Source: an uncultured Candidatus Saccharibacteria bacterium (GTDB taxonomy: Bacteria; Patescibacteriota; Saccharimonadia; Saccharimonadales; Saccharimonadaceae). Taken from it: DNA of 64,000 nt. The DNA lies in NCBI GenBank assembly GCA_963517325.1, contig CAUQDR010000001.1, positions 236,130-300,129 on the forward strand, written 5' to 3'. Shown one piece after another: positions 1 through 52,768 of this stretch (the stretch's first letter is position 1; each line of letters starts with the position of its first letter). The position numbers and the translations under genes are program-made. The notes below the pieces were generated by a model that saw nothing but the letters and a program-made list of their open reading frames with translations, was not told where the DNA came from and searched no databases.

Positions 1-218
1 GTATAAATCCGTAGAAGCTCGCCTTGTTCTGGGTTAAATGGATGATTTGAATCATAGCCAGAAATCATGTTAATAGCATTGCTAAGATTACTGCAGGATT
101 TATTAATATTTATATACTTAACCCTAGATTTGTCATGCGATAATTCTTTCCTATTTTTATAATAAAATGTTCTTAGTGCTTTTACATATTTATGTATTTT
201 TGCACATGCGGCATTCAT
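1..218 (-). CDS. hypothetical protein, N-terminal part only (gene runs off window start); most downstream visible gene of the NRPS operon
   Basis: Own minus-strand translation from ATG 218-216 gives MNAACAKIHKYVKALRTFYYKNRKELSHDKSRVKYININKSC..., open to position 1. Its ATG overlaps the NRPS TGA stop (ATGA at 215-218). No recognisable motif. Confidence 0.45.
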   Translation of the reverse strand, partial: MNAACAKIHKYVKALRTFYYKNRKELSHDKSRVKYININKSCSNLSNAINMISGYDSNHPFNPEQGELLRIY

Positions 219-3200
219 CGCGGATGAATTATAATTTCCAGATAAACGAAACGCGGCTTGTTCATGGTAGTTTTTTCATATCCGGCTGAGTAGTTTTCTA
301 AAATCTTTTCTACTATGTTGTTCTCGCTATCATTATTTTGTTCAAGATTGATTTTGTGTATCTTTGTCATTAATGTTATTAGTGTTTCTGATGAAAGAAT
401 GGACCCTATAGTAACATCAAGTGCTAACTTGTTGAGTTCATTTTTTAATCTTAACGCCAGGATAGAGTCTCCGCCGTTCGCGATGAATGATTGATTAGAA
501 TCGATATTGTTAATATTTGTTGAAACTATATCGGAAATTAGTTTTTTTAAGCTTTGTATATCTGAGAAATTAGTACTTTTTATCTGCGTGTCTTCTTCTA
601 TATACTTAGATTCTATCTCATAACACTCATCATTTAGCAGGCCATTTATAGAATTTACAAATGAGTCAATAATATTCTGCGGCTCTATACCGTTACTTGT
701 TGCAACCGTTAAAAATAATTCGCCGTTAGAGAAATCAAAATCAATCGCAAGAGGGAATTCAGTTTCTTCGTGTGTGTATATAATATCGTATTTTTGACTA
801 TCTATGTTTCGCGTTGTTATTGTTAGTAAAATGTCGAATGGTATAAATTTATTAGATGAAAGAGCTAATATTTTTTGAAGTGAATAATCTTTGAATGGTT
901 CGCGTTCTTTGTTTTTTGCAATCGTATCCAAGATATTTTTTGTCAGTACTGTTTTATTCGATATGTAAGGAACTGTATTTACTGACGGTTCCAAATTATT
1001 AAAATCGACCAAATTATTTCGAATATTATATACGAAGCCATATCCAATTCGTTTTTTTCCAAAATATTGAAGCGCCCAACAGTTAAAGACGCTCTGCACT
1101 ACTATTGCTGGTGTAGTAGAGAATTTTTTTGATAAACCATAAATTGACTGAGTTGCGTTTTTGCTTAGAACAACCTTTTTATTTTTATAGCCAGTTGCGT
1201 GTAGCTTCTTAGGAAAAGTGAAATCGCTCTTATCTATTTTCTGCATCTCATTTTTCCAATATAATATAGCTGCCTCTTCGCTATATTTTTTTGATGATAA
1301 TGGTAAAGGTCTATTTTTTATATTTCTTTCGCTCGTAATGAAATCTAATAAGAAAAATACACTATCTCCATCTAATAATACATGGTTATAACTGATACAT
1401 AAATAAAGATTGTCTATTGTATCAACAATTAAATAACGGATTGGTGGATATTTTTGTAAGTCAGGAATTTTTTTACGTTCATTCAGAAATATTTCGTTAA
1501 TTTCCGACTCTAGACACCATTCTTCGGTTAATATTGGTGAAGTAATATTAGAATCTTTTTGGAAAATCTCTCCATTTTTTTCATAAAACACCATTCTTAG
1601 TGACTTTATTTTCTGTGTCATGATGGTTATCTGCTTTTTTATATCCTCTTTTTTATACGACGATATATTTATGACAATTTGTTCTTTGTATAAATTATTC
1701 TTTCCAAATTCACTTCCAATAAGAAAACTCTTTTGAGCCGAAGTAGCAGGGATATCATCATTTTTTTGTAATCTTGAATATATTTTGCTTAGTGTATTTT
1801 TCGTAATCATAAGATTACTTTGCATTGATATTGTCGAGAGTTCTCGTCCAATGGTGATGTCTATTTCAATAAAAGGCACTGTACGGTTAATTATTGTAGG
1901 TAGTATTAATAGATTCTTGTTGTCGAGTTGGTTTTCACTTATTGTATTAAAAATAATTAATGGGCTTTTGTCTGAAATTTTTACAACACACGTTCCTTTG
2001 ACTTCACTAAAATTAGATGTTGTAAAATCAAATTTTTGTGATTCATAGTATGTCCCCCAGCCGATAGAGTTGATTGTATGGCTGTCATCATTTCTAACTG
2101 ACATCTCGTTTAGGATAACCAAATCACTGCTTTTTATTATCTGTGCATCATGGAGTGAGGATAATAATTGAGATTTTACATACTCCAAACTGTTGAGCTG
2201 TTGAGGAATATCAAGAAAGTTTATTTTTGTTTTTCCGTATTTTGCTTGGTTGTCTACTATAAAATTTGTTTTTTGATAAGAGTTATTAGACAGCGCCTTC
2301 TTGATGTAGTCTTCATTTTTGATATTAGCAAAATTATTTTCTCCGTCTAAGATTGAGTTTAAACCGTTGCTTAATATTTTCCACGAATAGATATCAAAAT
2401 AAAAATGATGGGATACAAACAAGATTTTTATATTATTATCTTGATAAAATGGAATGGCAATCATATTTATTTTATCTAAGACGAGTCGACCTCTATTTTT
2501 TTCTATTTCAGCATGAATGTCTTTTATTCCCGGTAAAGATAATATATTGTCCGAAAAATCAATTTTAAGAAATGGCAGAGACTGCCGTATTGTACGTAAT
2601 AAATATTTTAAATTTTCCTCGTTTAATTTTTTGTTAAAATATACTCCAGCTTGGATTTCCGCACTATTCTTAAGATTACCGGATAGCCTTAAATATGATT
2701 TCTGTATATTAGAATGCCTTGGTAAATCTCGATAGATAGTTTGATCGTTATTTTTTCTATTATCCAATAATTGAGCAATACCGACTGGTGTTCTCTCTTT
2801 AATTATGTCTCTTGGTCCAACTGGTATATTTATTTTATTGAGTTCATTAGAAGCTGTTAGACATAGCAAGGAATCTCCTCCAAGCTCAAAAAAATCCGAT
2901 TCAGCGTCGATCTTGCGTCCCAAAAGTTTTGCCCATATATTACAAATTTCTCTTATTATATTTGTTCTGCCATAAGAAGTGTTTCTCTCCTCCGGATTAG
3001 TTATTTCCTCACATAGACTGTCTAGTTTTTTTCTATCAAGTTTTCCGTTATTGTTTGTTGGTAAATGACTTATTGACTTTATTCTCCACGGAACCATATA
3101 ACATGGTAAAACATTGGATATGCGGGTTTTTAACAAATTCGCGTCTATCATATTGGTAGACTCAATAAAACAAACTAACCTATTATTGTTTTTGAATTTA

Positions 3201-5734
3201 TGAAAAACGATAGCTACCTTTTCAACATTTAATATTTGTCTAATTTTTTCCTCAATTTCGCCTAATTCTGCTCGTTGCCCACGTATTTTTACTTGATTGT
3301 CACGACGTCCATTATAGCCTAATATGCCATCCTTAATCCATCTCCCATAATCACCGGTTGCATAAACTTTTTCCCGTATTCCACTAATGTATTTAAAAAC
3401 TTCGGCTGTTTTGGCAGTATTATTTATATATCCATTAGATAACGAAATGCCATATATGCATATTTCACCTACGATTTTTTGTGGACAAATTTGATCATCG
3501 CAATCTAAAATTATGGTCCCGATATTATCTAATGGCATACCAATTGGAATATCTTCGTACTTAAGTATCGATTCGGAAGATATTTCAAAGAAATGAGTAT
3601 CGTCCGATGCTTCAGCTGGACCATATGCGTTTACGAGAGGATTGTTTGGATGCTGCTCATTCCATTTTACTGCAATTTTCTTAGCGATTCCTTCGCCAGT
3701 TGATATAATCTTTATACTATCTAGTATTTTATTTTTCGCAACATGAGATAATTCATAATCTAAGTATTCACTTATTAATGATGGTACTATTTCTAAGATT
3801 GTAATTTTATCCCTAGATATTTTATCAAGCATACCTTCAGGATCGATTAAAATATCTTTATCTATTATATCAATGGTGCCACCAACCATTAGGGGACAAA
3901 TTAATTGCCATATAGAAATATCAAAAGAGACTGGAGCGGATTGGGCGACAACGCTATTTTTTGATATATTAAAATACCGTATCATTATTTCCTGATGATT
4001 AACAAACCCAAGTCGATTAATCATAACACCTTTTGGTTTGCCGGTAGAGCCGGATGTAAAAATAATATAGGTTAAATCTTTGTCATCTACATGTTGTGAT
4101 TTTGGTAGTCTTCTTTGCCCTTTAATCAAGTCCTGAATATCTAGGTTCTTTACATTATCACAACGGCTTATTGGTGAATTCGTTATTACGAAATCTAGGT
4201 TAGCCTCATCTGATACCTCATCTATTCTATTTTGTGGTAACGCAGTGTCAAGTGGAATGAATGGTGCGCCAATTGAAATTAACGCAAGCTGGGCGGCGAT
4301 ATATTCAATGCTTCGCTCTAGGTTTATTCCAACTAAAGTCCCCTTCCTTATCTTTTTCCTACGTAAGTTATATTCGATATTAGCAACCAACCGTAACAGG
4401 TCTTTGTATGTGATTGACTTGTTGTTATGTATAATGGCATTTTTTCTAGGGTCCTTTTTTGCGATTTTTATTATTTTATTGATAATATTGGTATCACAAG
4501 CTAATGATTTTCCTTTTCCAAAATTTATTATTCGTTTTTCTTCTGCTTCTGAGCACATATGTAAAGAGGAGGCTTTATTATTTGGAGAATTGACAGTCTG
4601 ATTTAAGATTAAGCCAAATGAATTGGCTACGGCGTCGGCGTAATCATCAGAAATTTTGTTTTTATCAAACTCAATATGTATTAAGTATCGATTGTTCCTT
4701 TTGATGAGAGATAATGAAAAGCCAAGCCTCGCAGTCTTGTTTGGGATAGTTACGAAGTTATTTATACTTTTATCTTCGTCTACAAACTCGGCCATCACAT
4801 TATAAAGACCAATCTCTCTGTCGATACCTAGTTCGTTTAAAAGCTTATTGAGGGAGAAGTTTCTATGCTCAATTCCAGTCCACAACGAAAAAGTTGTTTC
4901 ATTTATTAACTCTAATATAGTCTTTGAAGATTCTATATGTATTGGGATTGGAAGAACGTTAATATTACAGCCATACTGAATTTTTGCGTCATCTGTATAA
5001 TTTCTTAGTGTTACTGGCGTGGAAATAACCATGTTGTCTTCTGAAAGAACTTTTCTTAATATGATAGCGGTAGTTAAAATCACGAGTGCTGTCGCTGAGG
5101 TACTATTTTTTGCCACAAATTCTTCCATACCTCTAGCGGTTGAATTGTCTAGTAACTTATCGATTATGCCAATCCCCACGCAACCTTCTGTTGGCATAAA
5201 GAATGAACATGGTTCATGATTATTTTTTAATTTTTCTTTCCAGTAAATATTATCGTCGACGCATATTTTGGCTTGTATGTGGTCGGATAGTTCAAATTTA
5301 TGATTAGGCTCTTTTATTAAGCTATGTAGCGTGTTAATAAAACTTTTTATAGAATCTTTATCAAAATAAAAATGATGTGTAGCGATAAAAATCGTGTTAT
5401 TGTTTCTAAAATAAAATCGAATTGATTCTCCTGTGTTTAAGTCGAAAACAAGGTGAAGTTCTTCTATGCTCTCTACCTCAACTATGTCATTAGTGTCTTT
5501 TGATTTATTTTTTAAATACGGTTCACCATCATTTTTTAATGAGACGCGCATGTCTAAGTTGGGAAAAAATAGTGCGGTCCTTTTTAAAGCTTTGCTAAAG
5601 TTATCTTTTTTTATGGGTTTTAAGAAAGTTAATTTTATAACGATATTGTCTCTATCGTCACGAAAGGTATTATTGGATATCCAGAAATTTTTTTCGAAGT
5701 CACATAATGATCTACTTTTCATCTTTATCTCCAA
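215..5734 (-). CDS. nonribosomal peptide synthetase, domain order C-A-T-C-C-T (no TE/R domain)
   Basis: 1839-aa ORF. Condensation His motifs: HHFYFDKDS (~aa 118), HHFYFDIYS (~aa 1108), NHVLLDGDS (~aa 1450). Adenylation cores: YIIFTSGSTGKPKGV, FDISIWQ, NAYGPAE, YATGDYGRW, GRRDNQVKIRGQR, NGKLDRK. Carrier Ser motifs: FFELGGDSLL (~aa 954) and IANGGDSILAL (~aa 1756). Confidence 0.93.
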   Translation of the reverse strand: MEIKMKSRSLCDFEKNFWISNNTFRDDRDNIVIKLTFLKPIKKDNFSKALKRTALFFPNLDMRVSLKNDGEPYLKNKSKDTNDIVEVESIEELHLVFDLNTGESIRFYFRNNNTIFIATHHFYFDKDSIKSFINTLHSLIKEPNHKFELSDHIQAKICVDDNIYWKEKLKNNHEPCSFFMPTEGCVGIGIIDKLLDNSTARGMEEFVAKNSTSATALVILTTAIILRKVLSEDNMVISTPVTLRNYTDDAKIQYGCNINVLPIPIHIESSKTILELINETTFSLWTGIEHRNFSLNKLLNELGIDREIGLYNVMAEFVDEDKSINNFVTIPNKTARLGFSLSLIKRNNRYLIHIEFDKNKISDDYADAVANSFGLILNQTVNSPNNKASSLHMCSEAEEKRIINFGKGKSLACDTNIINKIIKIAKKDPRKNAIIHNNKSITYKDLLRLVANIEYNLRRKKIRKGTLVGINLERSIEYIAAQLALISIGAPFIPLDTALPQNRIDEVSDEANLDFVITNSPISRCDNVKNLDIQDLIKGQRRLPKSQHVDDKDLTYIIFTSGSTGKPKGVMINRLGFVNHQEIMIRYFNISKNSVVAQSAPVSFDISIWQLICPLMVGGTIDIIDKDILIDPEGMLDKISRDKITILEIVPSLISEYLDYELSHVAKNKILDSIKIISTGEGIAKKIAVKWNEQHPNNPLVNAYGPAEASDDTHFFEISSESILKYEDIPIGMPLDNIGTIILDCDDQICPQKIVGEICIYGISLSNGYINNTAKTAEVFKYISGIREKVYATGDYGRWIKDGILGYNGRRDNQVKIRGQRAELGEIEEKIRQILNVEKVAIVFHKFKNNNRLVCFIESTNMIDANLLKTRISNVLPCYMVPWRIKSISHLPTNNNGKLDRKKLDSLCEEITNPEERNTSYGRTNIIREICNIWAKLLGRKIDAESDFFELGGDSLLCLTASNELNKINIPVGPRDIIKERTPVGIAQLLDNRKNNDQTIYRDLPRHSNIQKSYLRLSGNLKNSAEIQAGVYFNKKLNEENLKYLLRTIRQSLPFLKIDFSDNILSLPGIKDIHAEIEKNRGRLVLDKINMIAIPFYQDNNIKILFVSHHFYFDIYSWKILSNGLNSILDGENNFANIKNEDYIKKALSNNSYQKTNFIVDNQAKYGKTKINFLDIPQQLNSLEYVKSQLLSSLHDAQIIKSSDLVILNEMSVRNDDSHTINSIGWGTYYESQKFDFTTSNFSEVKGTCVVKISDKSPLIIFNTISENQLDNKNLLILPTIINRTVPFIEIDITIGRELSTISMQSNLMITKNTLSKIYSRLQKNDDIPATSAQKSFLIGSEFGKNNLYKEQIVINISSYKKEDIKKQITIMTQKIKSLRMVFYEKNGEIFQKDSNITSPILTEEWCLESEINEIFLNERKKIPDLQKYPPIRYLIVDTIDNLYLCISYNHVLLDGDSVFFLLDFITSERNIKNRPLPLSSKKYSEEAAILYWKNEMQKIDKSDFTFPKKLHATGYKNKKVVLSKNATQSIYGLSKKFSTTPAIVVQSVFNCWALQYFGKKRIGYGFVYNIRNNLVDFNNLEPSVNTVPYISNKTVLTKNILDTIAKNKEREPFKDYSLQKILALSSNKFIPFDILLTITTRNIDSQKYDIIYTHEETEFPLAIDFDFSNGELFLTVATSNGIEPQNIIDSFVNSINGLLNDECYEIESKYIEEDTQIKSTNFSDIQSLKKLISDIVSTNINNIDSNQSFIANGGDSILALRLKNELNKLALDVTIGSILSSETLITLMTKIHKINLEQNNDSENNIVEKILENYSAGYEKTTMNKPRFVYLEIIIHPR

Positions 5735-7361
5735 TTAATTTTTTTAAATCACTAAAAGAATAATCATTACGAAGTATATCGATCAAATTAATTTTTAGGT
5801 CGTAAACATCAGTAAGTGCCTTAACGAGCTTTAATGCTCTTAACGAGTCTCCGCCAGCAGCGAAAAAGCCTATTTCTGCGGTTTTTGGCACTTCTCCAAA
5901 AACCTCATACCATAATTTTAGCAACTTCTCATCCCTAGTATTATTACTACTGAAAGTTAGAGGACTCACCTCTGGGATATTCTTGATTTTTAAGGCTAGT
6001 TGTTTTCTGTCAATTTTTCCGTTCTGGCTAAGTGGAAAATTATTTATTATTGCAATCTTCCATGGTAGTAATTTATATGTAGATAGAAAATTTGTTTTTT
6101 TAATGCGGTTGTAATCTGACTTATTGTCGGTAACTGCAATGAGTGTGAGTTCATTTTTGTACTTTTTGGGGACAATAAATAAATTATCAATATCAAGAAG
6201 TTCCCTCAATTCCGTTTCTAATCCCTCCAGTTCGATTCTTTGGCCATTTATTTTGACTTGATTGTCTTTTCGTCCGAGGTATTCAATAATGCCGTTTTTA
6301 TGAATTTTTCCAATGTCGCCGGAATTAAACCAACGTTTACCGTGTATTTTTATACAATTATCTGGCATAGTGCCTAAATATTTATTGAATAATTGTTTGC
6401 TATTTATTAAAATTTCGTTATTTTCTGACAATCTTATTTTGACTCCATCGATTGGAAGGCCTATTGGGACTCTATATTTTTGTTCGCTTGTTATTTCATA
6501 TGTTGAGGCGCAGATAATGGATTCAGTTGGCCCGTATGCATTAATTAAATGTTTTACTTTTTTTCTACAACGATTAGCGAGTGCTACCGGGCATTCTTCG
6601 CCAGCTAAAATTAGGGTAGTAATATGATTTAAAATGGAATCGTCGATAGTTTTTGCGAGGCTAGGAGGAAGAGTGATTATATTGTTTCTATAGTTAGACA
6701 AAGTCTGTAGGGATTGATATGGATTTTCTCTCAATTCTTTGCCGGGAATTAATAGTGTAGCTCCACTCAATAGAGCTGTCCAAATTTCAGCTAGTGACGA
6801 ATCGAAACCGAGGTAAGCAAACTGTACTACATTGGAAGTGTTTTTAATATAATATTTCTTAATTAAAGCCTTTGCCAGTTGCCCTAGAGCATGCGAACTA
6901 GCAAAAACTGCTTTCGGTTCGCCGGTCGAACCAGAGGTGAAAATTACATATCCACCATTGGTTGAGATATTATTTTTATTAAACGTACCGTTGAACTTTT
7001 TTACAGTTGAGTATTTAATTAGTTCGAGGTTTTCTATATCTTTATGTGACTCTGAAAAATAAAATCGCGCATATCTTGATAAGAGGCTAGAAATCTTTTT
7101 TTGTTCTAATCTCGGATCAATCAACACAATGTTTTTACCAGCAAAAATTGTGGCGATAATACTGACTACTGCTAGATAATTTTGATCATCTATTATACCT
7201 ATAAATTCTTCATCGCTCAGCTTGGATGTTAAATATTTTATGAATGTATTTATGTCTTTTTTAAGCTCTCGGTAACTTATTATTGCTCCATTAAAACATA
7301 TAACTGCGGGAGCATCCAGGTATTTATTGGCAATTTTTAGGAAATCTTTATATAGACTCAT
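5712..7361 (-). CDS. stand-alone adenylation + peptidyl-carrier (A-T) didomain protein
   Basis: 549 aa. Motifs FTSGSTGEPKAV, FDSSLAEIW, NAYGPTES, GRKDNQVKINGQR and NGKIDRK, then carrier motif FFAAGGDSLRALKL. The stop region overlaps the NRPS start by 23 nt. Confidence 0.9.
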   Translation of the reverse strand: MSLYKDFLKIANKYLDAPAVICFNGAIISYRELKKDINTFIKYLTSKLSDEEFIGIIDDQNYLAVVSIIATIFAGKNIVLIDPRLEQKKISSLLSRYARFYFSESHKDIENLELIKYSTVKKFNGTFNKNNISTNGGYVIFTSGSTGEPKAVFASSHALGQLAKALIKKYYIKNTSNVVQFAYLGFDSSLAEIWTALLSGATLLIPGKELRENPYQSLQTLSNYRNNIITLPPSLAKTIDDSILNHITTLILAGEECPVALANRCRKKVKHLINAYGPTESIICASTYEITSEQKYRVPIGLPIDGVKIRLSENNEILINSKQLFNKYLGTMPDNCIKIHGKRWFNSGDIGKIHKNGIIEYLGRKDNQVKINGQRIELEGLETELRELLDIDNLFIVPKKYKNELTLIAVTDNKSDYNRIKKTNFLSTYKLLPWKIAIINNFPLSQNGKIDRKQLALKIKNIPEVSPLTFSSNNTRDEKLLKLWYEVFGEVPKTAEIGFFAAGGDSLRALKLVKALTDVYDLKINLIDILRNDYSFSDLKKLIGDKDEK

Positions 7362-9106
7362 CTTATTTTCTCAAAATAATAATCATTAATCACCATGCAG
7401 TCAATGTCTGATTTTATAAAAGATCTAATTGCGTCATCTTCGTAGCAGACAATTGGTTCGCTCTTAAGATTGAAAGATGTATTTAATATTACAGGTATAC
7501 CGGTGTTTTTCTCCATAAAGTCAAGCAAGCTCCAAATATCTGGTAGATCGTCTCTTGATACTGTCTGAATGCGGGAAGTTCCATCAATATGGATTACGGC
7601 CTGAAGTTTATCCCTATACCTGTCTCTAACCGTTGCATTTATCAGCATATGTTTATAGTTGCAAGATTTTGTTGTTATGAAGAATTTGTCTACGAACTCT
7701 GATTTTACCATTGGGGCAAATGGCCTAAACATCTCCCGTTCTTTTGTGATTTTATTCAATCTTTCCTTCGTCTTTATATCCCTAGGATCGGCAAAAATAG
7801 ACCTATGACCAAGTGCTCTTGGGCCAAATTCCATCTTTCCTCTAGCCCAAGCAACAATCTTTTTATTAATTAAGTCAGTACCAACTCTATGGATTAGCTC
7901 TTTGTCTGTCATTTTAGTGATATTTACCCCATCCACGGATTTACCAGAATATTTAATCTCTGGACCATAAAACGGCATGCCAGGGCAAAACTTACTACTT
8001 AAAGATTTTCCGTTTTTAATAAGAATATTCATACATGCACCTAACGACGTTCCATCGTCAGCTGAGGCTGGTGGAATATAAATTTTGTCAAATATGTTTT
8101 TTGAAGCTATGAATGCATTTGTTACGCAATTGAGGGCCACACCACCAGAAATACATAGTTGTTTTGCTCCAGTTTGTTTGCGCCAATAATCAACTAGCTC
8201 TAGCATTATCGTATTAGTCTTATGTTGTAGTGCTGCTGCTAAGTCAATATGCTCAGAAGTTATTTTGTCTTTTGGGTCCCGCTCCTTAAATAGATTTTTG
8301 CTTAGGAATCTCTTAAAGTGTCTATATGTCTCTCTGTCATATACTGTTGTAATTTTATCTGGGAATAGCATTTTTATATTGATGTTGCCATCGCAAAATA
8401 TAGCGGTATTATTCATGAATCCCTCATATTTTTTGGGGTTTCCAAAAGCCGCAAGTCCCATGATTTTATATTCATCAGAATTTGGATAAAAACCAAGGAA
8501 CTCAGTCGTTGCGGCATACATCATACCTATTGAACTATCAGCATTATATGTACGAAGTTTTGTGATTTTTTTGCCCTCTCCTAGATATATAGATATACTG
8601 TCAACTTCCCCTAATCCGTCGGCTATAACTATCAGTGTTTTTGTGTTGAAGGCGGAAGTAAGATATGCATATGTGGCATGGCAATCGTGATGGGCGATAG
8701 GCGTATATTTTTTGCTAATATCGACATAAAAATATTTACTAAAGAGTGATATTTGAGCATTATTTGAAAGAACTTCTTCATATAATCTTTTTGAATATTC
8801 ATTTAGCTCGTAAATTGCACTATATGGTTCATAATTAAAACCATGTGCTATTATATCTATGTCGTTTATTCCTATGTTAGCAACTCTTAGGCATTCTCTT
8901 ATTGCATTTACGGGGAAATCTCCAGTATGCTTTTTACCATTAAATCTTTCTTCGGCACAAGCACATATAATTTCTCCATCTTTCATAATGGCAGCCGCAG
9001 AGTCCATTCCTTGACCGATACTTTTCTCTATATCAGTTAAGTGGGGAGCATTAGTTCTTTTAAAGTTAATATATCCATCTAGGCCGCTATACCCTAAAAT
9101 ATACAT
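7358..9106 (-). CDS. carbamoyltransferase, NodU/CmcH (TobZ-like) family
   Basis: 582 aa. Family-typical segments: GMDSAAAIMKDGEIICACAEERFNGKKHTGDFP, CISGGVALNCVTN, FGPRALGHRSI, NTSFNLKSEPIV. There is a 4-nt overlap with the downstream A-T gene. Confidence 0.88.
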   Translation of the reverse strand: MYILGYSGLDGYINFKRTNAPHLTDIEKSIGQGMDSAAAIMKDGEIICACAEERFNGKKHTGDFPVNAIRECLRVANIGINDIDIIAHGFNYEPYSAIYELNEYSKRLYEEVLSNNAQISLFSKYFYVDISKKYTPIAHHDCHATYAYLTSAFNTKTLIVIADGLGEVDSISIYLGEGKKITKLRTYNADSSIGMMYAATTEFLGFYPNSDEYKIMGLAAFGNPKKYEGFMNNTAIFCDGNINIKMLFPDKITTVYDRETYRHFKRFLSKNLFKERDPKDKITSEHIDLAAALQHKTNTIMLELVDYWRKQTGAKQLCISGGVALNCVTNAFIASKNIFDKIYIPPASADDGTSLGACMNILIKNGKSLSSKFCPGMPFYGPEIKYSGKSVDGVNITKMTDKELIHRVGTDLINKKIVAWARGKMEFGPRALGHRSIFADPRDIKTKERLNKITKEREMFRPFAPMVKSEFVDKFFITTKSCNYKHMLINATVRDRYRDKLQAVIHIDGTSRIQTVSRDDLPDIWSLLDFMEKNTGIPVILNTSFNLKSEPIVCYEDDAIRSFIKSDIDCMVINDYYFEKIR

Positions 9107-9107
9107 T

Positions 9108-9656
9108 TTATATATCCTTATTTATTACTTGATAATCGTCTATTCTCAAGGCTGAGCATATAGCAAATACATAGTCATAATCTTTAATTATTTTATAAAA
9201 GCCTTTATCGACTAATCTACCTTGTCTTTTTAATTTATATTTATCATCGTTTGCAATCATAGAATATTCACTTGGGTCGGCCATCAAAAACCCTACGCCT
9301 TGTTTCTTTAAAGAAGCTTCTTTGAGGCACCATAGATCGATAAGTGTACTATTCTGAACAGAATCGTCTCCGGAAAATGCAATTTTTTGAACATTTTTTA
9401 ATTCGTTATTTCTAATTTTTGGCTCAAGGTCTACGCCTATAGGATATTGGGATAATGCTATGAATAATAAGCTATTCGCATGTGAATAGCTTATGTAGTA
9501 GTCACTATACTCTAGATGCGGTTTTCCGTTTTTGTCGTGTGTTAATTTAATATTTGTATTATTTAATTTTAACTTAGCAATTTCTTCCACCTTTTTTCTA
9601 CAAAAATCTCTCGAATGTGCCTCCTTGAGATTATATAAGATAAAATATTGCTCCAT
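9108..9656 (-). CDS. 4'-phosphopantetheinyl transferase, Sfp type
   Basis: 182 aa. Motifs GKPHL, ISYSHANS, IGVDLE and WCLKEASLKKQG, the classic Sfp/EntD arrangement. Ends 1 nt before the carbamoyltransferase start. Confidence 0.85.
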   Translation of the reverse strand: MEQYFILYNLKEAHSRDFCRKKVEEIAKLKLNNTNIKLTHDKNGKPHLEYSDYYISYSHANSLLFIALSQYPIGVDLEPKIRNNELKNVQKIAFSGDDSVQNSTLIDLWCLKEASLKKQGVGFLMADPSEYSMIANDDKYKLKRQGRLVDKGFYKIIKDYDYVFAICSALRIDDYQVINKDI

Positions 9657-9668
9657 TTTTTTCTCACA

Positions 9669-10166
9669 TTAGATCTTTAATGCCATTTCTAAATCATGTC
9701 GAATAAAACCATTTTTCTCATAAACAGCTATTGCACGCTTATTGTCGGATAAGACCAATAATCTTATACTAGTGCAATTTTCTGATTTGAAATAATCCTT
9801 CATCTTATCGAGTAGCTTTTTACCTATGCCACTGCCTCTATGTTCAGGTTTTACAAATAATAATCCAATCCATCCTTCTTTCGAAGGATTATGCGAAAGA
9901 TCATAAAAAATATCATCGCCTTTTTTGTGTTCAATTATCACTCCTTGGATAAAACCAATAATTTGGTTTTTCCATTCGGCGACAAAAATTTTACCATGCA
10001 TATTATTTGCGTCATCTATCATTTTCTGCATATAATGATGGGCGCTATCAATGTCGCTATATGGCAGCGACTCGTGCGTTTGGTCAATCTCTGAAAAATA
10101 CTTTTGGAGCTCAAATTGCATTTCGTCTATATATTTTCGGTCATTTATGTCTATTTCTCGAATCAT
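9669..10166 (-). CDS. GNAT-family N-acetyltransferase
   Basis: 165 aa. Acetyl-CoA binding motif RGSGIGKKLL, followed by a LLVLSDNKRAIAVYEKNGF beta-bulge region. Confidence 0.85.
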   Translation of the reverse strand: MIREIDINDRKYIDEMQFELQKYFSEIDQTHESLPYSDIDSAHHYMQKMIDDANNMHGKIFVAEWKNQIIGFIQGVIIEHKKGDDIFYDLSHNPSKEGWIGLLFVKPEHRGSGIGKKLLDKMKDYFKSENCTSIRLLVLSDNKRAIAVYEKNGFIRHDLEMALKI

Positions 10167-10183
10167 TTTTAATCCTTTATTGT

Positions 10184-11197
10184 TTAAATTACATTATCAC
10201 TGGTTACGATTTCTGTTTGTTCGGTATTCTCAGAAAGGCCATTGATGAACGAATTAAATGCTTTTGGCGTTACACTCTGATTATATCCACCGGATAATAA
10301 TACTAGTGCCGGCGTATCTATCTCCTTTAACATACGTCCCATACTTTCATAATCTGCGTCTTGAAGCATGGTTAGTGGTGGAAGGTCTTTGTATTCGTTT
10401 ATGTGTCCGTCAAATCCTGCATCGATAATGAGGTAGTCTGGAGAAAACTGTTTTACCCCATCTAACATTTTTCTAAATATGGCAAGATATTCGGGCGCGG
10501 ATATACCAATCCGCAAAGGGTAGTTATTGATATTTTTGTATAAAATATGATCTACTGAATAACCGGTATGGGGCATAATAATATTGGGATCAGCATGGAG
10601 TGAATTATATAATATATCATCTCTGCCTTTTACGATATCCTGTGTGCCATCCCCATGATGAATGTCAAAATCTATGATAGCACTTTTTTTCCCGATTTTT
10701 GAAACCTGGTCTGCAGCGATTGCTGCATTATTAAAATAACAAAAACCATGGTAAAAGTTTTTTCCGGCATGATGACCCGGTGGGCGATTGATTGATATAG
10801 CCAACCTGGTATTTTGATTGATTAGGTTATCTAAACCAAGTAAGGCGCATTCTACGGACATTAATGATTCTTCAAATGTTCCTGGATATATTTCTGACGT
10901 TCCGACATCTTTATCTATGTCAAATTCTGTTGTCTGAGAAACGCCACTATTTGATTCCTTTGATGCTCTATATATTGCTTTTATCATAGCTTTATCATGT
11001 ACATCCATGACTGCAGAGACTGTTTCTCGATGTAGCTCAGTAACAATATTCCAGTTTTTGTCATCTGCGTTATCTACAAATAATTCCTCGACAATCCGAA
11101 AAACTCGTTCTGGGGTGTCCCATGGTTTTTCTTGATCATCCCGATATCCTGGATGATTGGAATGATTAGGATTATATAAAAAAAGTTTTTCACTCAT
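10184..11197 (-). CDS. histone-deacetylase-like amidohydrolase (AcuC / acetylpolyamine amidohydrolase family)
   Basis: 337 aa. Motifs PPGHHAGKNFYHGFCYFNNAAIAA and DFDIHHGDGTQ (zinc/catalytic motifs of the HDAC superfamily), and LSGGYN near the C-terminus. Confidence 0.88.
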   Translation of the reverse strand: MSEKLFLYNPNHSNHPGYRDDQEKPWDTPERVFRIVEELFVDNADDKNWNIVTELHRETVSAVMDVHDKAMIKAIYRASKESNSGVSQTTEFDIDKDVGTSEIYPGTFEESLMSVECALLGLDNLINQNTRLAISINRPPGHHAGKNFYHGFCYFNNAAIAADQVSKIGKKSAIIDFDIHHGDGTQDIVKGRDDILYNSLHADPNIIMPHTGYSVDHILYKNINNYPLRIGISAPEYLAIFRKMLDGVKQFSPDYLIIDAGFDGHINEYKDLPPLTMLQDADYESMGRMLKEIDTPALVLLSGGYNQSVTPKAFNSFINGLSENTEQTEIVTSDNVI

Positions 11198-11457
11198 CTA
11201 GTTCTCCAATATTGATATCCATTTTTATCTCTAGATAAAAACCCGCTTTCAACTAATTCTCTACGAAGAAGAGGCCAATCCGAAAAAGTATGATGATCTT
11301 TTAAAATTTGATTAATCTCAATTTCAGAATAAAATCTATCTTTATCAAAAAAATTTGATAAATACTCTAGAACCAATAGCTGTCGGGTCCTTTTGGAAGG
11401 CCAAGAAGAAACATTATTAAATTCATCAAGGAAATGTTTTATCTGTGATATATCCAT
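11194..11457 (-). CDS. DUF2087-domain protein (first gene of the NRPS operon)
   Basis: 87 aa. The pattern WPSKRTRQLLVLEYL...YSEIEINQIL...DWPLLRRELVESGFLSRDKNGYQYWR matches the DUF2087 layout. There is a 4-nt overlap with the HDAC-like gene. Confidence 0.6.
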   Translation of the reverse strand: MDISQIKHFLDEFNNVSSWPSKRTRQLLVLEYLSNFFDKDRFYSEIEINQILKDHHTFSDWPLLRRELVESGFLSRDKNGYQYWRTR

Positions 11458-11465
11458 TAAGGCTA

Positions 11466-11474
11466 ATTATACAA
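11466..11474 (-). promoter_or_regulatory. extended -10 box (TTGTATAAT) 8 nt upstream of the operon's first ATG; implies a leaderless transcript
   Basis: The reverse complement of 11466-11474 is ttgtataat. The ATG is at 11457 and there is no Shine-Dalgarno between them. Confidence 0.45.
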
Positions 11475-11698
11475 CATTTATATATATTTCTAATACTTTT
11501 AGCGTATCTCTCTATCTAATTTTCTAATACTCCTCAATAATTTATTCCTGAACAGTAATATCGTTTCTGTTAGTTTCTAAATTTACGGTAGGACTACACT
11601 TAATAGGTTTTTCTCTTATAGTTTAAATTCTTTGCCATACATCTATAGAACATGTAATTCAGTTATGTAATAGTGCTCTAGTAATAAGTCTTTTTAAT

Positions 11699-11910
11699 AT
11701 GCCGCGACATCACTTATTTCAACACCAAACTCTTTACCTATATTTAAGTAAAGTATTTTTTACTGACTACTAATTTTTTAATAATAGTGTCATAGCTATC
11801 ACCTTTGGCTCCTAATTCTATGAATTTAGCTTGTTTTTTTCTATTTTATTATCTATTTGAATAATCTCCTTTAGCTCAAGAGAGCGTATGTTATGACGAT
11901 AATCTAGCAT
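11699..11910 (-). pseudogene. frameshifted helix-turn-helix ORF fragments (possible recombinase/transposase remnant)
   Basis: Own translation gives three consecutive minus-strand frames: MLDYRHNIRSLELKEIIQIDNKIEKNKLNS*, then KKQAKFIELGAKGDSYDTIIKKLVVSKKYFT*, then LNIGKEFGVEISDVAAY*. Two segments resemble the HTH pattern G-S-x-x-x-I-A-K-x-x-G-V-S. No intact ORF. Confidence 0.25.
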
Positions 11911-11976
11911 ACAGATTCTTTTTATTCTGGGGTAATTAATTACCATTTTCTAGTTATTTGGGTTTGGGTCCATAGT

Positions 11977-12141
11977 ATGGATGTAAATACCGCCAGTCAG
12001 CTATATGATAGATTAGACGAGAACGTAGTTCGACTGGACGACGAAGCGAGTGAAAGAAAAAAGCTAGCTTTTTTCTTTCCGAGCGAGGAGGAACAGATAT
12101 TTTTCTCAGAGAGAAAAATATCGACTAGTCAGGCCGCTTAA
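11977..12141 (+). other. 54-codon ORF or structured small RNA ending at an intrinsic terminator
   Basis: An ATG..TAA frame reads MDVNTASQLYDRLDENVVRLDDEASERKKLAFFFPSEEEQIFFSERKISTSQAA. It has no SD. It contains a perfect 28-nt palindrome (12052-12079) and an 11-bp-stem hairpin (12097-12121). The terminator begins 3 nt after the stop. Confidence 0.25.
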
Positions 12142-12143
12142 AT

Positions 12144-12167
12144 AACTCCTTACGGAGTTCTTTTTTT
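12144..12167 (+). terminator. intrinsic terminator, copy 1 (aactcc-ttac-ggagtt + T7)
   Basis: 6-bp GC-containing stem, tetraloop and T-run. Identical over 28 nt to the copy at 12418-12442. Confidence 0.7.
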
Positions 12168-12417
12168 GTTGTACAAATTGTGAACGACTGGCGATATTGG
12201 CTTTTTGGGCCTGATTTGATATGATGTAGATAAATCACGACGCAGGGATGCACCGAACGGAGAAATGCCTAAGGCGAACCTGCTTTTTTGATTGTCAGGC
12301 TATTTCTTCTTAAACTCAATCTTGCTTCTTACGGCAGAATCGTCAAGATATACCCTATATGTATCGGCCATGCGAGGTTCATAGGGCGGCGATAGGCTAG
12401 ACGCACAACATTAAAAT

Positions 12418-12442
12418 AACTCCTTACGGAGTTCTTTTTTTT
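12418..12442 (+). terminator. intrinsic terminator, copy 2 (identical hairpin + T8)
   Basis: Same aaataactccttacggagttcttttttt sequence as copy 1. It lies about 10 nt upstream of a TGTGTAAAAT -10-like box for the next gene. Confidence 0.7.
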
Positions 12443-12538
12443 GCGTTGTGTAAAATGACAGGATATTATAAGCTTAAGACAAGAATAACAGAAGAGATAT
12501 TTAAGCCGTACAGAAATTAGTGATGGAGGAGATATAAT

Positions 12539-13612
12539 ATGATTTATCCAGGAAAAATAAAAAAGGGCGCTACGGTTGGGATTGTTTGTTTATCAAGCGG
12601 AGTGCTTGGGGAACCATTCGTAAAGCATGAAGTTAAATTAATCGAAGAGCGCTTGCCTAGAGATTTTGGGTTAAAATTCAAATACATGCCAAACGCGCTA
12701 AACGGCGAGGAATTTTTAAAAAATCATCCAGAAAAGAAGGCAGAGGATTTAAAATCAGCGTTTTTGGACGAAGATGTGGATATTATTTGGTCCGCACTTG
12801 GTGGTGATGATGCATTTAGGACGTTGCCGTATTTAATGAATGATGAGTTTGCTGAAATTATCAAGCAACACCCAAAACCATTTTTAGGATTTTCAGATAC
12901 CACTAATAATCATCTAATGCTTTATCAATTGGGGCTAGCAACTTTTTATGCACCATCATTACTATCGGATGTTGCCGAGCTTGGTCCAGAAATTTTTACA
13001 TATACTAAAGATTGGCTGAATAAACTTTTTGATTCAGATAAGAATATAGTGATTGAGTCTAGCCCGGTCTGGTATGAAGCAAGGACTTCTTTTGATGAGT
13101 CTCAACTAGGAGTGTGGCGTAAAGAGCGAAAAGAAGAACATGGACATGAATATTTGTACGGTAAAGGAGTGGTGCAGGGTGATTTATTGGGCGGATGTCT
13201 AGAAAGTTTAGCTGAAATGATTACGGGAGGACGGCATCCAGATCAAAAAGAAGTATACAAAAAATATCAAATTTTCCCAACAAGGGAACAATGGAGCGGT
13301 AAGATAGCCTTTATTGAAACCAGTGAAGAAAGACCTAGTCCAGAAAAGCTAAAAAGTATGCTGGAGGTATTAGAAGATAGAGGAGTTTTTAGTGCTATCC
13401 GAGGATTAATTATTGGAAAGCCGCAAGATGAAGTGTATTATCGTGAATACAAAGAAATATACACTGCGTTAGCGAAAAAATATAACCTACCGACAGTGTT
13501 TAATTTAAACTTTGGCCATACTGCTCCGCGTATGGTTCTTCCATACGGTAAGCCAATTAAAATCGATTTTGCTAAGCAAGAGATTCTATTAGTAGACGGA
13601 ATGTTAGGATAA
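12539..13612 (+). CDS. S66-family serine peptidase (LD-carboxypeptidase / MccF-like)
   Basis: 357 aa. Nucleophile motif LGFSDTTNNH and C-terminal NFGHTAP His motif. GGAGG SD 8 nt upstream of the ATG. Confidence 0.85.
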   Translation: MIYPGKIKKGATVGIVCLSSGVLGEPFVKHEVKLIEERLPRDFGLKFKYMPNALNGEEFLKNHPEKKAEDLKSAFLDEDVDIIWSALGGDDAFRTLPYLMNDEFAEIIKQHPKPFLGFSDTTNNHLMLYQLGLATFYAPSLLSDVAELGPEIFTYTKDWLNKLFDSDKNIVIESSPVWYEARTSFDESQLGVWRKERKEEHGHEYLYGKGVVQGDLLGGCLESLAEMITGGRHPDQKEVYKKYQIFPTREQWSGKIAFIETSEERPSPEKLKSMLEVLEDRGVFSAIRGLIIGKPQDEVYYREYKEIYTALAKKYNLPTVFNLNFGHTAPRMVLPYGKPIKIDFAKQEILLVDGMLG

Positions 13613-13721
13613 AAAATGAAAGAAATTAACAAAATGAATTATTCGGGGTTCGTTGGTTAACCACAGATTTAATTGGTCGTTAAAAATAGAAAATCAGTTT
13701 CTTTGGTAATCCAAGATACAA

Positions 13722-14867
13722 TTACTTGAACAGATTCATATATTCAGTGTATCTATAAAGTCGATTTCTCGAGAATCCAGTTATCTCTTCTAATATATTT
13801 AGTCTTACAAGCTCCTTGAGGAGGGTATTTGTAGATGTTATAGAAGTCTCTGTGATTAAGGATGCTTTTTTAGAATCCAAAATAGGCATCCCGTACATGG
13901 CATCTATTAGCTTGGAAGCACTTTGTGTTCTTTTTCCAAGACATAAAATTAACTGGTCGTTTTTTGTTTTTAGATCAAGTATCTTTTGCAGAGTATTACA
14001 TGATTCTTCTGCTGTCTTAGAAACAGCTACTAAAAAGAACTTAATCCATCGCCCAATGTCATTATTGAAACGAACGGCATCAAGCGCGTCGTAATATTGA
14101 GCTCTATTTTTTGAAAAATAATCAGAAAGATACAATACTGGCTTAGAAAGCTTATTCTTTTCAATCAGGAATAAGACAATGATTAACCTTCCTAGCCTTC
14201 CATTACCATCAAGAAATGGATGTATTGTTTCAAATTGATAGTGACTTACAGCCGCCTTTATGAGTAACGGGGTCATCATTGCCTTATCATTCCAGTAATG
14301 ATCTAAGTCATTCATTAAGTCATTAATCATATGTGGTGCTGGAGGAACAAAATGAGCATCGCGTATTGTAGCTCCGCCAATCCAGTTTTGTGTCTTTCTT
14401 AATTCTCCTGGAGTCTTGTATTCGCCTCGTACGCCGGAAATTAATACTTTATGAGTTGATTTTAATAAATTTGTAGCTAGTGGGCGCGAGTTTAACCTAT
14501 CAATAGCAAAGCGCATTGCTTGAATATAATTTTGAACCTCTTTCCAATCGTCACGTCTTTCGGGTTCAATGTTTTCTTCGTCCATTACGGCTTCGTCGAT
14601 CTCTGTGCGTGTCCCCTCGATTTTGTTTGAAGCAGTAGCTTCTTTTGTTTCATGCATAGTAATAAAAAAGTCAACATTTGGGACTAACTTTGCATATGCG
14701 TTAAGTTCACCAAGTTGTTGTGTAGCTTCTTCAAGAAGTAAATTAATGCTTGGATCATCGAGGGGTAATTGATCGGGTAAAAAATTAGGCATAAAATAGC
14801 TATATTGGAAGTCTGTTCTAGCGGACTCTGTAATAAATTTTCCTGATTCAAATTGCTCACTTATCAT
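13722..14867 (-). CDS. Fic-family protein (AMPylase type) with intramolecular inhibitory motif
   Basis: 381 aa. Fic motif HPFLDGNGRLGRL. An N-terminal SNKIEG matches the (S/T)xxxE(G/N) alpha-inh motif. The C-terminal region is wHTH-like. Confidence 0.9.
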   Translation of the reverse strand: MISEQFESGKFITESARTDFQYSYFMPNFLPDQLPLDDPSINLLLEEATQQLGELNAYAKLVPNVDFFITMHETKEATASNKIEGTRTEIDEAVMDEENIEPERRDDWKEVQNYIQAMRFAIDRLNSRPLATNLLKSTHKVLISGVRGEYKTPGELRKTQNWIGGATIRDAHFVPPAPHMINDLMNDLDHYWNDKAMMTPLLIKAAVSHYQFETIHPFLDGNGRLGRLIIVLFLIEKNKLSKPVLYLSDYFSKNRAQYYDALDAVRFNNDIGRWIKFFLVAVSKTAEESCNTLQKILDLKTKNDQLILCLGKRTQSASKLIDAMYGMPILDSKKASLITETSITSTNTLLKELVRLNILEEITGFSRNRLYRYTEYMNLFK

Positions 14868-14873
14868 AGCTTT

Positions 14874-14882
14874 ATTATAGCA
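14874..14882 (-). promoter_or_regulatory. extended -10 box TGCTATAAT, 6 nt from the fic ATG (leaderless)
   Basis: The reverse complement of 14874-14882 is tgctataat. The spacer is aaagct and the ATG is at 14867. Confidence 0.5.
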
Positions 14883-14911
14883 AAAAATATTTTATATTCA
14901 AGTTTAAGCCA

Positions 14912-14990
14912 TTAAGTTGGAATATAAATAATTATATTAAACTTTAGTGTTATAAGTTGGAATATAATAAAATTATATTAAACTTTAGTG
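14912..14990. repeat. two tandem ~39-40-nt direct repeats, each with an internal AT-rich inverted repeat (operator-like)
   Basis: Copies are ttaagttggaatataaataattatattaaactttagtg and ataagttggaatataataaaattatattaaactttagtg. The inner palindrome is aatataat/attatatt. The repeats lie 30-110 nt upstream of the fic -10 box. Confidence 0.7.
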
Positions 14991-15021
14991 CGACTTTTAA
15001 TGAAGATTATTTTCAGTCTTC

Positions 15022-15831: not shown

Positions 15832-15919
15832 TAAATCCTCAATCTGATCTATTTTAATTCAATATGGTTTAACTTAACTGATATAATCTAGTCTAAATAG
15901 CTTAATCAGTAAATTAATT

Positions 15920-16987: not shown

Positions 16988-17029
16988 GGCTCCTCCTTTA
17001 GTCTAAAATATTACAACTTAGACAAAATA

Positions 17030-17038
17030 TGCTAATAT
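17030..17038 (+). promoter_or_regulatory. extended -10 box TGCTAATAT (leadered transcript, SD AGGAGG at ~17073)
   Basis: Sequence atatgctaatat is about 45 nt upstream of ATG 17084. Confidence 0.4.
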
Positions 17039-17083
17039 TTATATTATACAAAAAATCTACCAAAAGTAGAAATTAGGAGGAAA

Positions 17084-17779: not shown

Positions 17780-17799
17780 TTTAGGCATATACTAGTATT

Positions 17800-19350: not shown

Positions 19351-19364
19351 ACCTATTCCGTTTA

Positions 19365-19373
19365 TGCTATAAT
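19365..19373 (+). promoter_or_regulatory. extended -10 box TGCTATAAT overlapping the first ATG of the ORF-track model
   Basis: Sequence is tttatgctataatg. If this box is used, transcription starts downstream of ATG 19372 and the real start is ATG 19384. Confidence 0.45.
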
Positions 19374-46751: not shown

Positions 46752-46889
46752 AATAAAATTAAACAATATTTGCTCTGATAATTCCACCTCAGGATACTGA
46801 TTTGGTTTTTAATCAAAACATAACCACCTTGATAACTTCCTGAAAATTAGCTATATTTGAAGTATAGAAATTATTTTTTGGAGGAAAAG

Positions 46890-52377: not shown

Positions 52378-52417
52378 TTTGCGGTATTATCGGACCAACA
52401 ATAAATTGCTTTATAAT

Positions 52418-52738: not shown

Positions 52739-52768
52739 TGCGGACTTTTTGAATTTTTCCGTGTTAAT

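Follow-up and report, generated by a model that had tools for sequence, protein, structure and literature searches.

A 64,000-nucleotide stretch of DNA from an uncultured Candidatus Saccharibacteria bacterium, referred to here as the window, carries at its left end a non-ribosomal peptide synthetase (NRPS) gene cluster, and the genes, boundaries, relatives and possible product of this cluster are the subject of the present analysis. The window belongs to a metagenome scaffold of 333,504 bp (ENA ERZ28638152 scaffold_18), designated L001; other loci are given L numbers where they have to be told apart. Positions 1 to 12137 of the window form most of an accessory island of ~14.4 kb, which is located between the core genes SBP_bac_5 and Peptidase_S66.

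Genes of the island

The first gene of the operon encodes an 87-amino-acid (aa) DUF2087 protein (11194-11457; PF09860, 85.9 bits), which is possibly regulatory and which heads the cluster in most members of the family described below. It is followed, on the minus strand like all of the operon within the window, by genes for a 337-aa zinc deacetylase resembling HDAC and acetylpolyamine amidohydrolase (APAH) (10184-11197; Hist_deacetyl, 187.9 bits), a 165-aa GNAT N-acetyltransferase (9669-10166; Acetyltransf_1, 82.7 bits), a 182-aa Sfp-type 4'-phosphopantetheinyl transferase (PPTase; 9108-9656; an ACPS match and the signature motifs), a 582-aa carbamoyltransferase (CT) of the NodU/CmcH/TobZ type (7358-9106; Carbam_trans_N and Carbam_trans_C) and a 549-aa stand-alone loading protein with an adenylation (A) and a carrier (T) domain (the A-T protein; 5712-7361; Pfam AMP-binding and PP-binding). 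The NRPS gene, which is truncated here, lies at 215-5734 and encodes 1839 aa from a TTG or 1835 aa from the ATG at 5722. A 3' fragment of the same gene (309 aa; positions 1-218 and past the window edge) contains a terminal condensation-like domain (C'; Pfam Condensation). Neighboring genes are tightly packed, with 4-nucleotide ATGA overlaps at 11194-11197, 7358-7361 and 215-218, a 23-nucleotide overlap at 5712-5734 and remaining gaps of 17 nucleotides or less.

The cluster has a GC content of 0.33, compared with 0.42 in the rest of the window. An AT-rich non-coding leader inside the island (11458-12009; GC, 0.31), ahead of the DUF2087 gene, is the presumed promoter region; no open reading frame (ORF) of 80 aa or more was found in its 550 bp, and a promoter scan of the leader returned one weak minus-strand site (11843-11815) and no more sites than shuffled sequence. 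At the other end, the cluster extends ~2.3 kb past window position 1 through the rest of the C' domain and a 408-aa class-III aminotransferase to the tRNA-Leu gene. The cluster proteins gave no match when scanned with PADLOC for a possible defense system. The coordinates, strand and overlaps reported in the initial annotation agreed with the ORF list, and the Pfam search reproduced each of its domain calls, with ACPS at 23.4 bits just under the 25-bit cutoff; the eighth gene, which it had described as partial and of unknown function, is the tail of the NRPS and not a separate gene. That annotation had also recognized that the cluster is cut by the window edge and had suggested that a release enzyme or exporter might lie beyond it; a transaminase for L-2,4-diaminobutyrate (Dab) ends the cluster instead.

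In 10 other assemblies (L002 to L011), the NRPS is a single protein of 2144 aa with the order C-A-T-C*-C-T-C', where C is a condensation domain, and residues 1836 to 2144 of this protein correspond in frame to the 309-aa fragment of the window. The only sequence difference at the join of the 1835-aa and 309-aa parts was a poly-A run (271-276, minus strand), which is an A6 homopolymer in L001 and A7 in 10/10 other assemblies. Since this was the only difference and the intact length equals the sum of the two parts, they constitute one gene with a -1 frameshift, which removes the terminal C' domain and leaves C-A-T-C*-C-T in L001. Frameshifted, truncated NRPS products were found in NCBI, Logan and ENA, and hence the lesion does not appear to be a slip of one assembler. 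The strain represented by L001 would probably form no final product unless the A tract reverts.

Three condensation domains retain the second His of the active-site motif (HHFYFD at residue 116, HHFYFD at 1105 and NHVLLDGD at 1446). Carrier serines were located in GGDS motifs at residues 948 and 1750 of the NRPS and at residue 503 of the A-T protein, giving three carrier domains, and the PP-binding domains scored above the Pfam cutoff. The fourth, terminal condensation-like domain is strongly conserved but has S-[I/T/A]-LVTDGWSF in place of HHxxxDG, the S-I-LVTDG form being without both His residues. The part of the NRPS without an A domain is C*-C-T-C'.

Putative substrates and tailoring enzymes

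The two A domains had AMP-binding scores of 194.8 and 126.2 bits in Pfam, and that of the NRPS scored 319 bits against TIGR01733, above the cutoff of 317.4. Pocket codes were read off an alignment to a GrsA segment. In both domains, the code began with Asp and a GK[IL]DRK motif was present, as expected of pockets of the amino acid type (equivalents of Asp235 and Lys517). The code of the A-T protein was DSATIAAICK, or DSVTIAAICK in freshwater copies, and agreed at 8/10 positions with the GrsA Phe code. The nearest specific solved A domains were GrsA-PheA and TycA, and the top named NCBIfam segment was AusA module 2. The pocket code, the solved domains and the NCBIfam segment together suggest that the A-T protein accepts a Phe/Tyr-like substrate. 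For the NRPS A domain, the code was DIWEITA-DD-K, and its three acidic pocket residues (E278, D330 and D331) suggest that a basic residue is taken; with a transaminase encoded alongside this basic-type pocket, Dab is the most likely residue. The top named match of this domain was the last module of NCBIfam NF004282, presumably a PvdL profile with a Dab-activating last module. Both codes were kept across the cluster family, as DS[A/V]TIAAICK and as DIWEITA..K with E278, D330 and D331.

Both A domains also scored well against DltA models, a result that would fit machinery that acts like DltA or in aminoacyl transfer, modifying a cell-surface polymer or an amino acid bound to a carrier without making a diffusible metabolite. 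Such a role would be in keeping with the lack of a thioesterase (TE), R domain and exporter in the cluster, with the terminal condensation-like domain devoid of the catalytic His and with the envelope-related functions of the neighboring core genes (Peptidase_S66 and SBP_bac_5). However, DltA matches are generic for A domains and remained under the curated cutoffs (305 versus 476 bits), while peptide-bond formation is indicated by the three carriers and by the second His, which three condensation domains retain. The envelope-related neighbors, moreover, are core genes that are present in island-free strains too. A surface-modifying role was accordingly judged to be highly improbable, and we favor peptide synthesis as the function of the operon.

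The PPTase of the window scored 23.4 bits against the ACPS model, and its orthologues in L014, L015 and L108 gave unmarked matches to PF01648. The GxDxE and WxxKExxxK motifs (G74, D76, E78, W109, K112, E113 and K117) were invariant in 6 family members, and the idea of a self-contained operon with its own Sfp-type PPTase was thus upheld and can be extended to its own Dab-supplying transaminase. The latter, the 408-aa aminotransferase, scored 542.7 bits against NF006733 (diaminobutyrate-2-oxoglutarate transaminase; cutoff, 438); because its score against the ectoine-specific equivalog TIGR02407 fell just short (522.7 bits, with 552.2 needed), it was not called EctB. The CT matched PF02543 (Kae1-like N; 154.5 bits) and PF16861 (YrdC-like C; 205.2 bits), had GdmN, NovN and TobZ as nearest solved structures and reached 158 of the 1000 bits set for the NodU equivalog. 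No specific NCBIfam equivalog was matched by the GNAT protein, which is not EctA. In the translation of the deacetylase (PF00850), the motifs PPGHHA, DFDIHHGDG, DAGFDGH and GGY were read, which would provide the tandem His, the Asp-His-Asp zinc ligands and the catalytic Tyr of this enzyme class; its nearest solved structures were HDAC6, a lysine deacylase and APAH.

A tRNA-Leu(GAG) insertion site with three alleles

In filled loci, the island starts right after the 3' end of tRNA-Leu(GAG), and the intact tRNA gene adjoins the island end that lies outside the window (L001 21380-21464). The right junction consists of a degenerate copy of the tRNA-Leu(GAG) 3' end (12121-12137, plus strand; TCGACTAGTCAGGCCGC), after which the native sequence resumes; the empty-site sequence for comparison is ...TCGAGTCTAGTCAGGTGCACCA-TAAAAT.... 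A 48-bp direct repeat is present just inside each island end, with the right copy at 12010-12057 (plus strand; AGATTAGACGAGAACGTAGTTCGACTGGACGACGAAGCGAGTGAAAGA) and the other, with 1 mismatch, at L001 21290-21337. Two copies of this repeat were found in 11/11 filled loci, one in the empty-site locus L098 and none in L100 to L105. As L098 was also colinear with the simulated product of recombination between the repeats (880 bp, 95.8%), these counts define three alleles: naive, filled and excised.

To the right of the island, the nearest core gene is Peptidase_S66 (LdcA-like; 12539-13612, plus strand). A search with its protein detected seven other contexts (L098 and L100 to L105) in which an identical protein is encoded and the cluster is absent. 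At these empty sites, SBP_bac_5 and Peptidase_S66 are ~600 bp apart with tRNA-Leu(GAG) in between. Eleven independent assemblies, belonging to three or more assembly series, had the same left and right junctions. A megablast search of the island against plasmid and phage collections gave no match.

These junctions bear on whether the NRPS segment of another organism was joined to Saccharibacteria core genes by misassembly or bin contamination. At the boundary, the GC content falls from ~0.42 to 0.33, and the intergenic region that forms the junction contains repeat sequence, both of which could be expected of a chimera. However, identical left and right junctions occur in 11 assemblies that were produced independently, from different samples and with different assemblers, and there are precise empty-site and single-repeat alleles; in addition, diverged cluster versions lie within other contigs of Saccharibacteria, 95 to 400 kb in length. 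The probability of a chimera is negligible, and the chimeric join considered in the initial annotation is refuted by the shared junctions together with the clean empty-site alleles.

Several further features were observed around the insertion site. In some alleles (L003 19596-19705, minus strand; L098 9363-9472), tRNA-Leu and the island are separated by an additional 68 bp, absent from L001, at the end of which CAGGTGCACCA occurs a second time and duplicates 11 bp of the tRNA 3' end; CAGGTGCACCA is a possible candidate for the att core. Two terminator-like hairpins of ~30 nucleotides (TAAAATAACTCCTTACGGAGTTCTTTTTTT) are located ~275 bp apart upstream of Peptidase_S66 (12140-12166 and 12414-12441), the first being the native tRNA-Leu terminator, and terminator-like sites are enriched upstream of this gene (4 found versus 0.5 expected). 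Genes for a SoFic-type Fic protein (13722-14867, minus strand; PADLOC, 367 bits) and for a type IV restriction-like GmrSD_C protein (15022-15831, minus strand) adjoin the island. The Fic gene is strain variable, being found in L001, L004 and L098 to L105 and not in L002, L003 and L005 to L010, and so the tRNA-Leu neighborhood looks like a small variable hot spot. In L011, a 439-aa HTH_23/28/29 protein (75-1394), which is transposase-like, is encoded where Peptidase_S66 usually flanks the island.

Lateral spread and selection

Among the 11 carriers, the 13.4-kb cluster was 99.16 to 100% identical (mean, 99.8%), whereas the flanking core DNA of the same strains was 88.8 to 99.9% identical, with means of 93.2% and 92.1%. 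Synonymous divergence within the island was ~0.02, a level which cannot be held down by selection and which therefore points to recent entry of the island into strains that had already diverged. The sequences indicate that entry has always been at one and the same tRNA and that the lateral spread was recent. Protein clusters of the biosynthetic gene cluster (BGC) had 5 to 20 members, compared with ~1200 for core proteins, and carriers are thus a small minority.

The ratio of pN to pS in the island was 0.20 between L001 and L003, and between L003 and the more distant L012 the dN was ~0.09 to 0.15 against a dS of ~0.9 to 1.6. These substitution patterns indicated that the cluster is under purifying selection. 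All eight genes were intact in 8/11 assemblies inspected, and L003 (ERZ28634199 scaffold_568, positions 5300-19800) is one such intact copy.

The remaining assemblies raised the prospect that the island is a decaying relic, non-functional and gradually disappearing by frameshifts in homopolymers and by deletion between repeats. A frameshift interrupts the NRPS of L001, an A7-to-A6 slip (position 2893 of the L003 cluster alignment) interrupts the CT of L002 and L010, and the NRPS of another strain is split (1703 + 432); furthermore, the single-repeat allele of L098 represents a precise loss and most strains are without the island. Set against these observations are the high proportion of intact copies, a pN/pS of 0.20 and a dN far below the dS between lineages. 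An island identity of 99.8% between strains whose flanks are 7 to 11% apart implies recent gain and not old decay, and lesions that are single slips in A7 tracts are reversible in principle. We consider a relic unlikely, and interpret the island as a recently spread and selected element.

All three gene-breaking lesions seen in the island (the NRPS of L001 and the CT of two assemblies) were losses of a single base in an A7 tract. Such slips could reflect slip-strand on/off switching, early decay or homopolymer miscalls. The island is somewhat likely to be non-functional in the L001 contig; non-function of the cluster family as a whole is unlikely.

Related clusters in Saccharibacteria

Relatives of the CT formed a graded series of 79, 76, 75, 73, 62, 56 and so on down to 48% identity, and the members at 79, 76, 54, 52 and 48% have their core genes in a common order. 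A homology search confined to the T2-C' fragment of the NRPS returned two matches through its word-index prefilter, too few to indicate the size of the family. The lineages at 79% and 76% had the same eight genes in different genomic contexts, and in the 79% lineage the cluster likewise adjoins the 3' end of tRNA-Leu. In more diverged copies (CT identities of 54% and 52%), the order was DUF2087-HDAC-PPTase-CT-A-T, followed by an NRPS split into C-A-T-C* and C-T-C' and then by the GNAT gene. The 48% copy had the order PPTase-CT-A-T-NRPS1-NRPS2-aminotransferase and was located beside rpsL-rpsG-fusA. The 52% copy was found both in an NCBI metagenome-assembled genome (MAG), Candidatus Saccharibacteria bacterium ELA668, and in a 397-kb JGI contig, and the elongation factor G adjoining the 48% copy was 99% identical to a Candidatus Saccharimonadales protein. 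Freshwater MAGs were among the carriers of diverged versions. The cluster is therefore a conserved family spread among Saccharibacteria and not a one-off occurrence. CT relatives represented by L109 (44% identity or less) were left out of the family, as they belong to a different cluster type with carbamoyl-phosphate synthase, TauD and MbtH.

Compared with L001 to L011, the cluster of L012 and L013 (both of the 79% lineage) has the opposite orientation with respect to SecG and SBP_bac_5, yet the tRNA-Leu 3' end and the same extra partial repeat (...CAGGTGCACCA) lie beside its aminotransferase end.

A scan of 185,579 GTDB species representatives returned ELA668 as the only family-level CT among the matches listed, the others listed being at most 41% identical and from unrelated phyla. 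The GC content of the cluster was always below that of its flanks yet tracked it over a range of 0.33 to 0.50. When the window lineage was compared with the 79% lineage, identities were 72 to 83% for cluster proteins and 77 to 78% for enolase and UvrC, a similar degree of divergence. Taken together, the sequence comparisons indicated that the pathway is old and maintained in the phylum and that it is also mobile within Nanosynbacter. As the diverged versions are under purifying selection, the cluster is a functional, lineage-associated trait and not a stray fragment.

These data also addressed the alternative of a recent one-off import from a donor of low GC content outside the candidate phyla radiation (CPR), for instance a Firmicute or Fusobacterium of the mouth, in which case the cluster would have no true link to the biology of Saccharibacteria. 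A GC content below that of the flanks and a tRNA site are both typical of foreign DNA, and the rarity of the island among strains (5 to 20 BGC cluster members versus ~1200 for core proteins) would also be expected after such an import. Nevertheless, the sole family-level CT among the GTDB matches listed came from a Saccharibacteria MAG, with the others at 41% or less in unrelated taxa; there was no match in the plasmid and phage collections; and all family members inspected that could be placed taxonomically were Saccharibacteria. Cluster GC tracks host GC between 0.33 and 0.50, and the cluster has diverged like core genes between two lineages. An isolated import is very unlikely in the light of this evidence. 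A low-GC Firmicute was specifically rejected as donor, given the tracking of host GC across the family and the lack of a non-CPR relative among the matches listed.

Host and remainder of the window

UvrA and ObgE of the window share clusters of at least 90% identity with NCBI proteins named Candidatus Saccharibacteria bacterium, and a BspA-like surface protein shares such a cluster with a protein named Candidatus Nanosynbacter sp. These protein clusters indicate that the host is an oral-type Candidatus Nanosynbacter (Saccharibacteria), in agreement with the CPR/Saccharibacteria lineage that had been guessed from the letters of the window. The longest contigs bearing members of the UvrA, ObgE and BspA-like clusters were ~0.75 to 0.78 Mb, and the genome size of carriers is thus probably ~0.7 to 0.8 Mb.

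The remaining 50 kb of the window encode repair proteins (UvrA, UvrB, RecG, ExoI and UDG), translation, tRNA-modification and other core proteins (GatCAB, TrmD, an RsmD-like protein, an RluA-like protein, MetK and Obg) and surface, envelope and signaling proteins (PARCEL and DUF285/BspA proteins, a two-component pair and a MacB-type ABC transporter), as well as SoFic and GmrSD_C. No further biosynthesis genes were found in these 50 kb and no rRNA genes within the window. This gene content matches that of a reduced episymbiont, as had been surmised in the initial annotation with its description of a minimal genome without other biosynthesis; fusA, which it had named as a flanking gene, does not occur in the window.

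Other features of this region were recorded. A 585-aa ORF (30156-31913, plus strand) fuses an N-terminal RuvX (Holliday-junction resolvase-like) to a C-terminal YceG/MltG, an unusual joining of a nucleic-acid enzyme with a cell-wall enzyme. A second patch of low GC content (~0.32; 52379-53801) between the MacB-type permease and gatC contains four small ORFs of unknown function, of 119 and 103 aa on the plus strand and 78 and 111 aa on the minus strand, and both minus-strand products resemble acidic paralogues. DUF285/LRR (BspA-like) genes were located at 19372-21162, 46857-48674 and 60372-61901. The number of BspA-like genes 3' of ExoI varied from one to three per strain, with variable length, among otherwise syntenic strains (including L098 to L104), which suggests that adhesin-like genes downstream of ExoI turn over rapidly.

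Discussion

It is very probable that the ~14.4-kb island at tRNA-Leu(GAG) in Nanosynbacter contains one operon for a complete non-ribosomal peptide pathway. From the gene content and pocket codes, the product is likely to be a small carbamoylated peptide of a Phe/Tyr-like residue and Dab that undergoes transient N-acetylation. In the proposed pathway, the Sfp-type PPTase of the island would convert the three carrier domains to the holo form and the EctB-like transaminase would produce Dab. The stand-alone A-T protein would load a Phe/Tyr-like aromatic amino acid, as predicted by its pocket code, and the A domain of the NRPS would load a basic residue, most likely Dab in view of the acidic pocket and the co-located transaminase. 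The first condensation domain may then couple the aromatic residue bound to the A-T protein with the Dab bound to the first NRPS carrier domain (T1), after which the C*-C-T-C' part could add or rearrange a further unit loaded in trans and release the product. The TobZ/NovN-like enzyme is predicted to carbamoylate a hydroxyl or amine. The GNAT protein may acetylate a primary amine, for example the gamma-amine of Dab, and the APAH/HDAC-like enzyme may remove the acetyl group; such an acetyl on/off cycle would serve as protection or self-resistance.

Several observations weigh against this reading. The substrate calls rest on pocket residues, and neither pocket code, nor the Dab code DIWELTADDK or its variants, was found in the searchable literature; the assignment of Dab draws on the acidic pocket, the transaminase and the last-module match to NF004282. 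The second NRPS carrier domain (T2) is not paired with an A domain of its own. The cluster contained neither a TE nor an R domain nor an exporter, a TE or R domain was likewise absent from all family members inspected, and the terminal condensation-like domain, without its catalytic His, was not recognizable as a dedicated chain-release domain. In L014 and L016, the sequence retrieved contained no gene for a Dab transaminase. The island lacked an integrase and any other mobility gene, with only the eight biosynthetic genes called between the repeats. Finally, with the NRPS frameshifted in L001 and the CT frameshifted in 2/10 other assemblies, some copies may be decaying.

The closest known counterpart of the assembly line is the chromophore module of pyoverdine in fluorescent pseudomonads (the last modules of PvdL and the Dab transaminase PvdH), which likewise combines an aromatic residue with L-Dab and has a cluster-encoded diaminobutyrate-2-oxoglutarate transaminase. 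The island differs in the absence of an acyl-ligase starter, a Glu module and siderophore tailoring genes, in its A-T + C-A-T-C*-C-T-C' architecture, in the addition of a CT, a GNAT protein and an HDAC-like deacetylase and in its host, a CPR episymbiont. The CT has the same two domains as TobZ, NovN, GdmN, NodU and CmcH, both far over the Pfam cutoffs, but is ~40% or less identical to any CT outside the family, and its known relatives act on sugars, ansamycins and cephems and not on small NRPS peptides. N-acetylation serves as an acetyl protect/deprotect or self-resistance device in phosphinothricin-tripeptide biosynthesis. Pathways of this type resemble the island by analogy in encoding a GNAT acetyltransferase and an amidohydrolase together with a small NRPS; the island deacetylase, however, is of the HDAC/APAH zinc family, unlike their hydrolases.

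As a mobile element, the island resembles tRNA-gene-associated islands in its exact tRNA 3'-end site, partial duplicate of the tRNA end, direct repeats, deviant GC content, presence/absence polymorphism and precise-deletion allele. It is unlike tRNA-associated integrative elements in having no integrase, excisionase or transfer genes and a cargo of eight biosynthetic genes only. Saccharibacteria are naturally competent, and the island may have spread by homologous recombination after DNA uptake or with the help of an integrase acting in trans.

CPR bacteria, including Saccharibacteria, are regarded as symbionts with a minimal metabolism, which draw on others instead of producing for themselves, and surveys have recorded hardly any biosynthetic clusters in these organisms. 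BGCs have been described as "rarely reported in CPR genomes" (PMC7298704), and two cultivated Saccharibacteria were without NRPS or polyketide synthase clusters (PMC8694215); the view in the initial annotation of a lineage nearly devoid of secondary metabolism is consistent with both reports. The BGCs that have been reported in CPR bacteria encode peptides that are made by ribosomes and modified after translation (RiPPs; LAP/YcaO and lanthipeptide) and a terpene (PMC7298704, PMC12153355). These clusters resemble the island as evidence of secondary-metabolite potential in ultra-small symbionts and differ from it in being of the RiPP or terpene and not the NRPS type. No published description of this NRPS cluster family or of a characterized homologue was found in the searchable literature. 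The enzymes all belong to known families and together make up an NRPS cluster, so that the type of system is not new; the novelty lies in the host lineage, the unusual architecture and accessory set and the well-resolved behavior as a mobile island, although genome-mining pipelines may already have catalogued the cluster. Given the tail without an A domain, the terminal condensation domain without His, the HDAC-like deacetylase and the absence of a characterized relative, the compound itself is likely to be new.

About 2% of a probable 0.7- to 0.8-Mb genome is given over to a complete peptide assembly line. The pathway is conserved from freshwater to host-associated lineages, which implies that some episymbionts invest in chemistry of their own. 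The island also provides a rare, well-resolved case in which genes have moved laterally among CPR strains, and each of the three alleles (naive, filled and excision scar) is available. Nanosynbacter strains can be cocultured and are open to genetic manipulation, and what the product does to the Actinomyces/Schaalia host or to the oral community can therefore be tested directly. We tentatively propose that this may be the first recognized NRPS family that is native to, and exchanged among, Saccharibacteria, and that it may make a previously unknown Dab-containing carbamoylated peptide, possibly under the control of a homopolymer switch, whose target would be the bacterial host, competitors or the human host.

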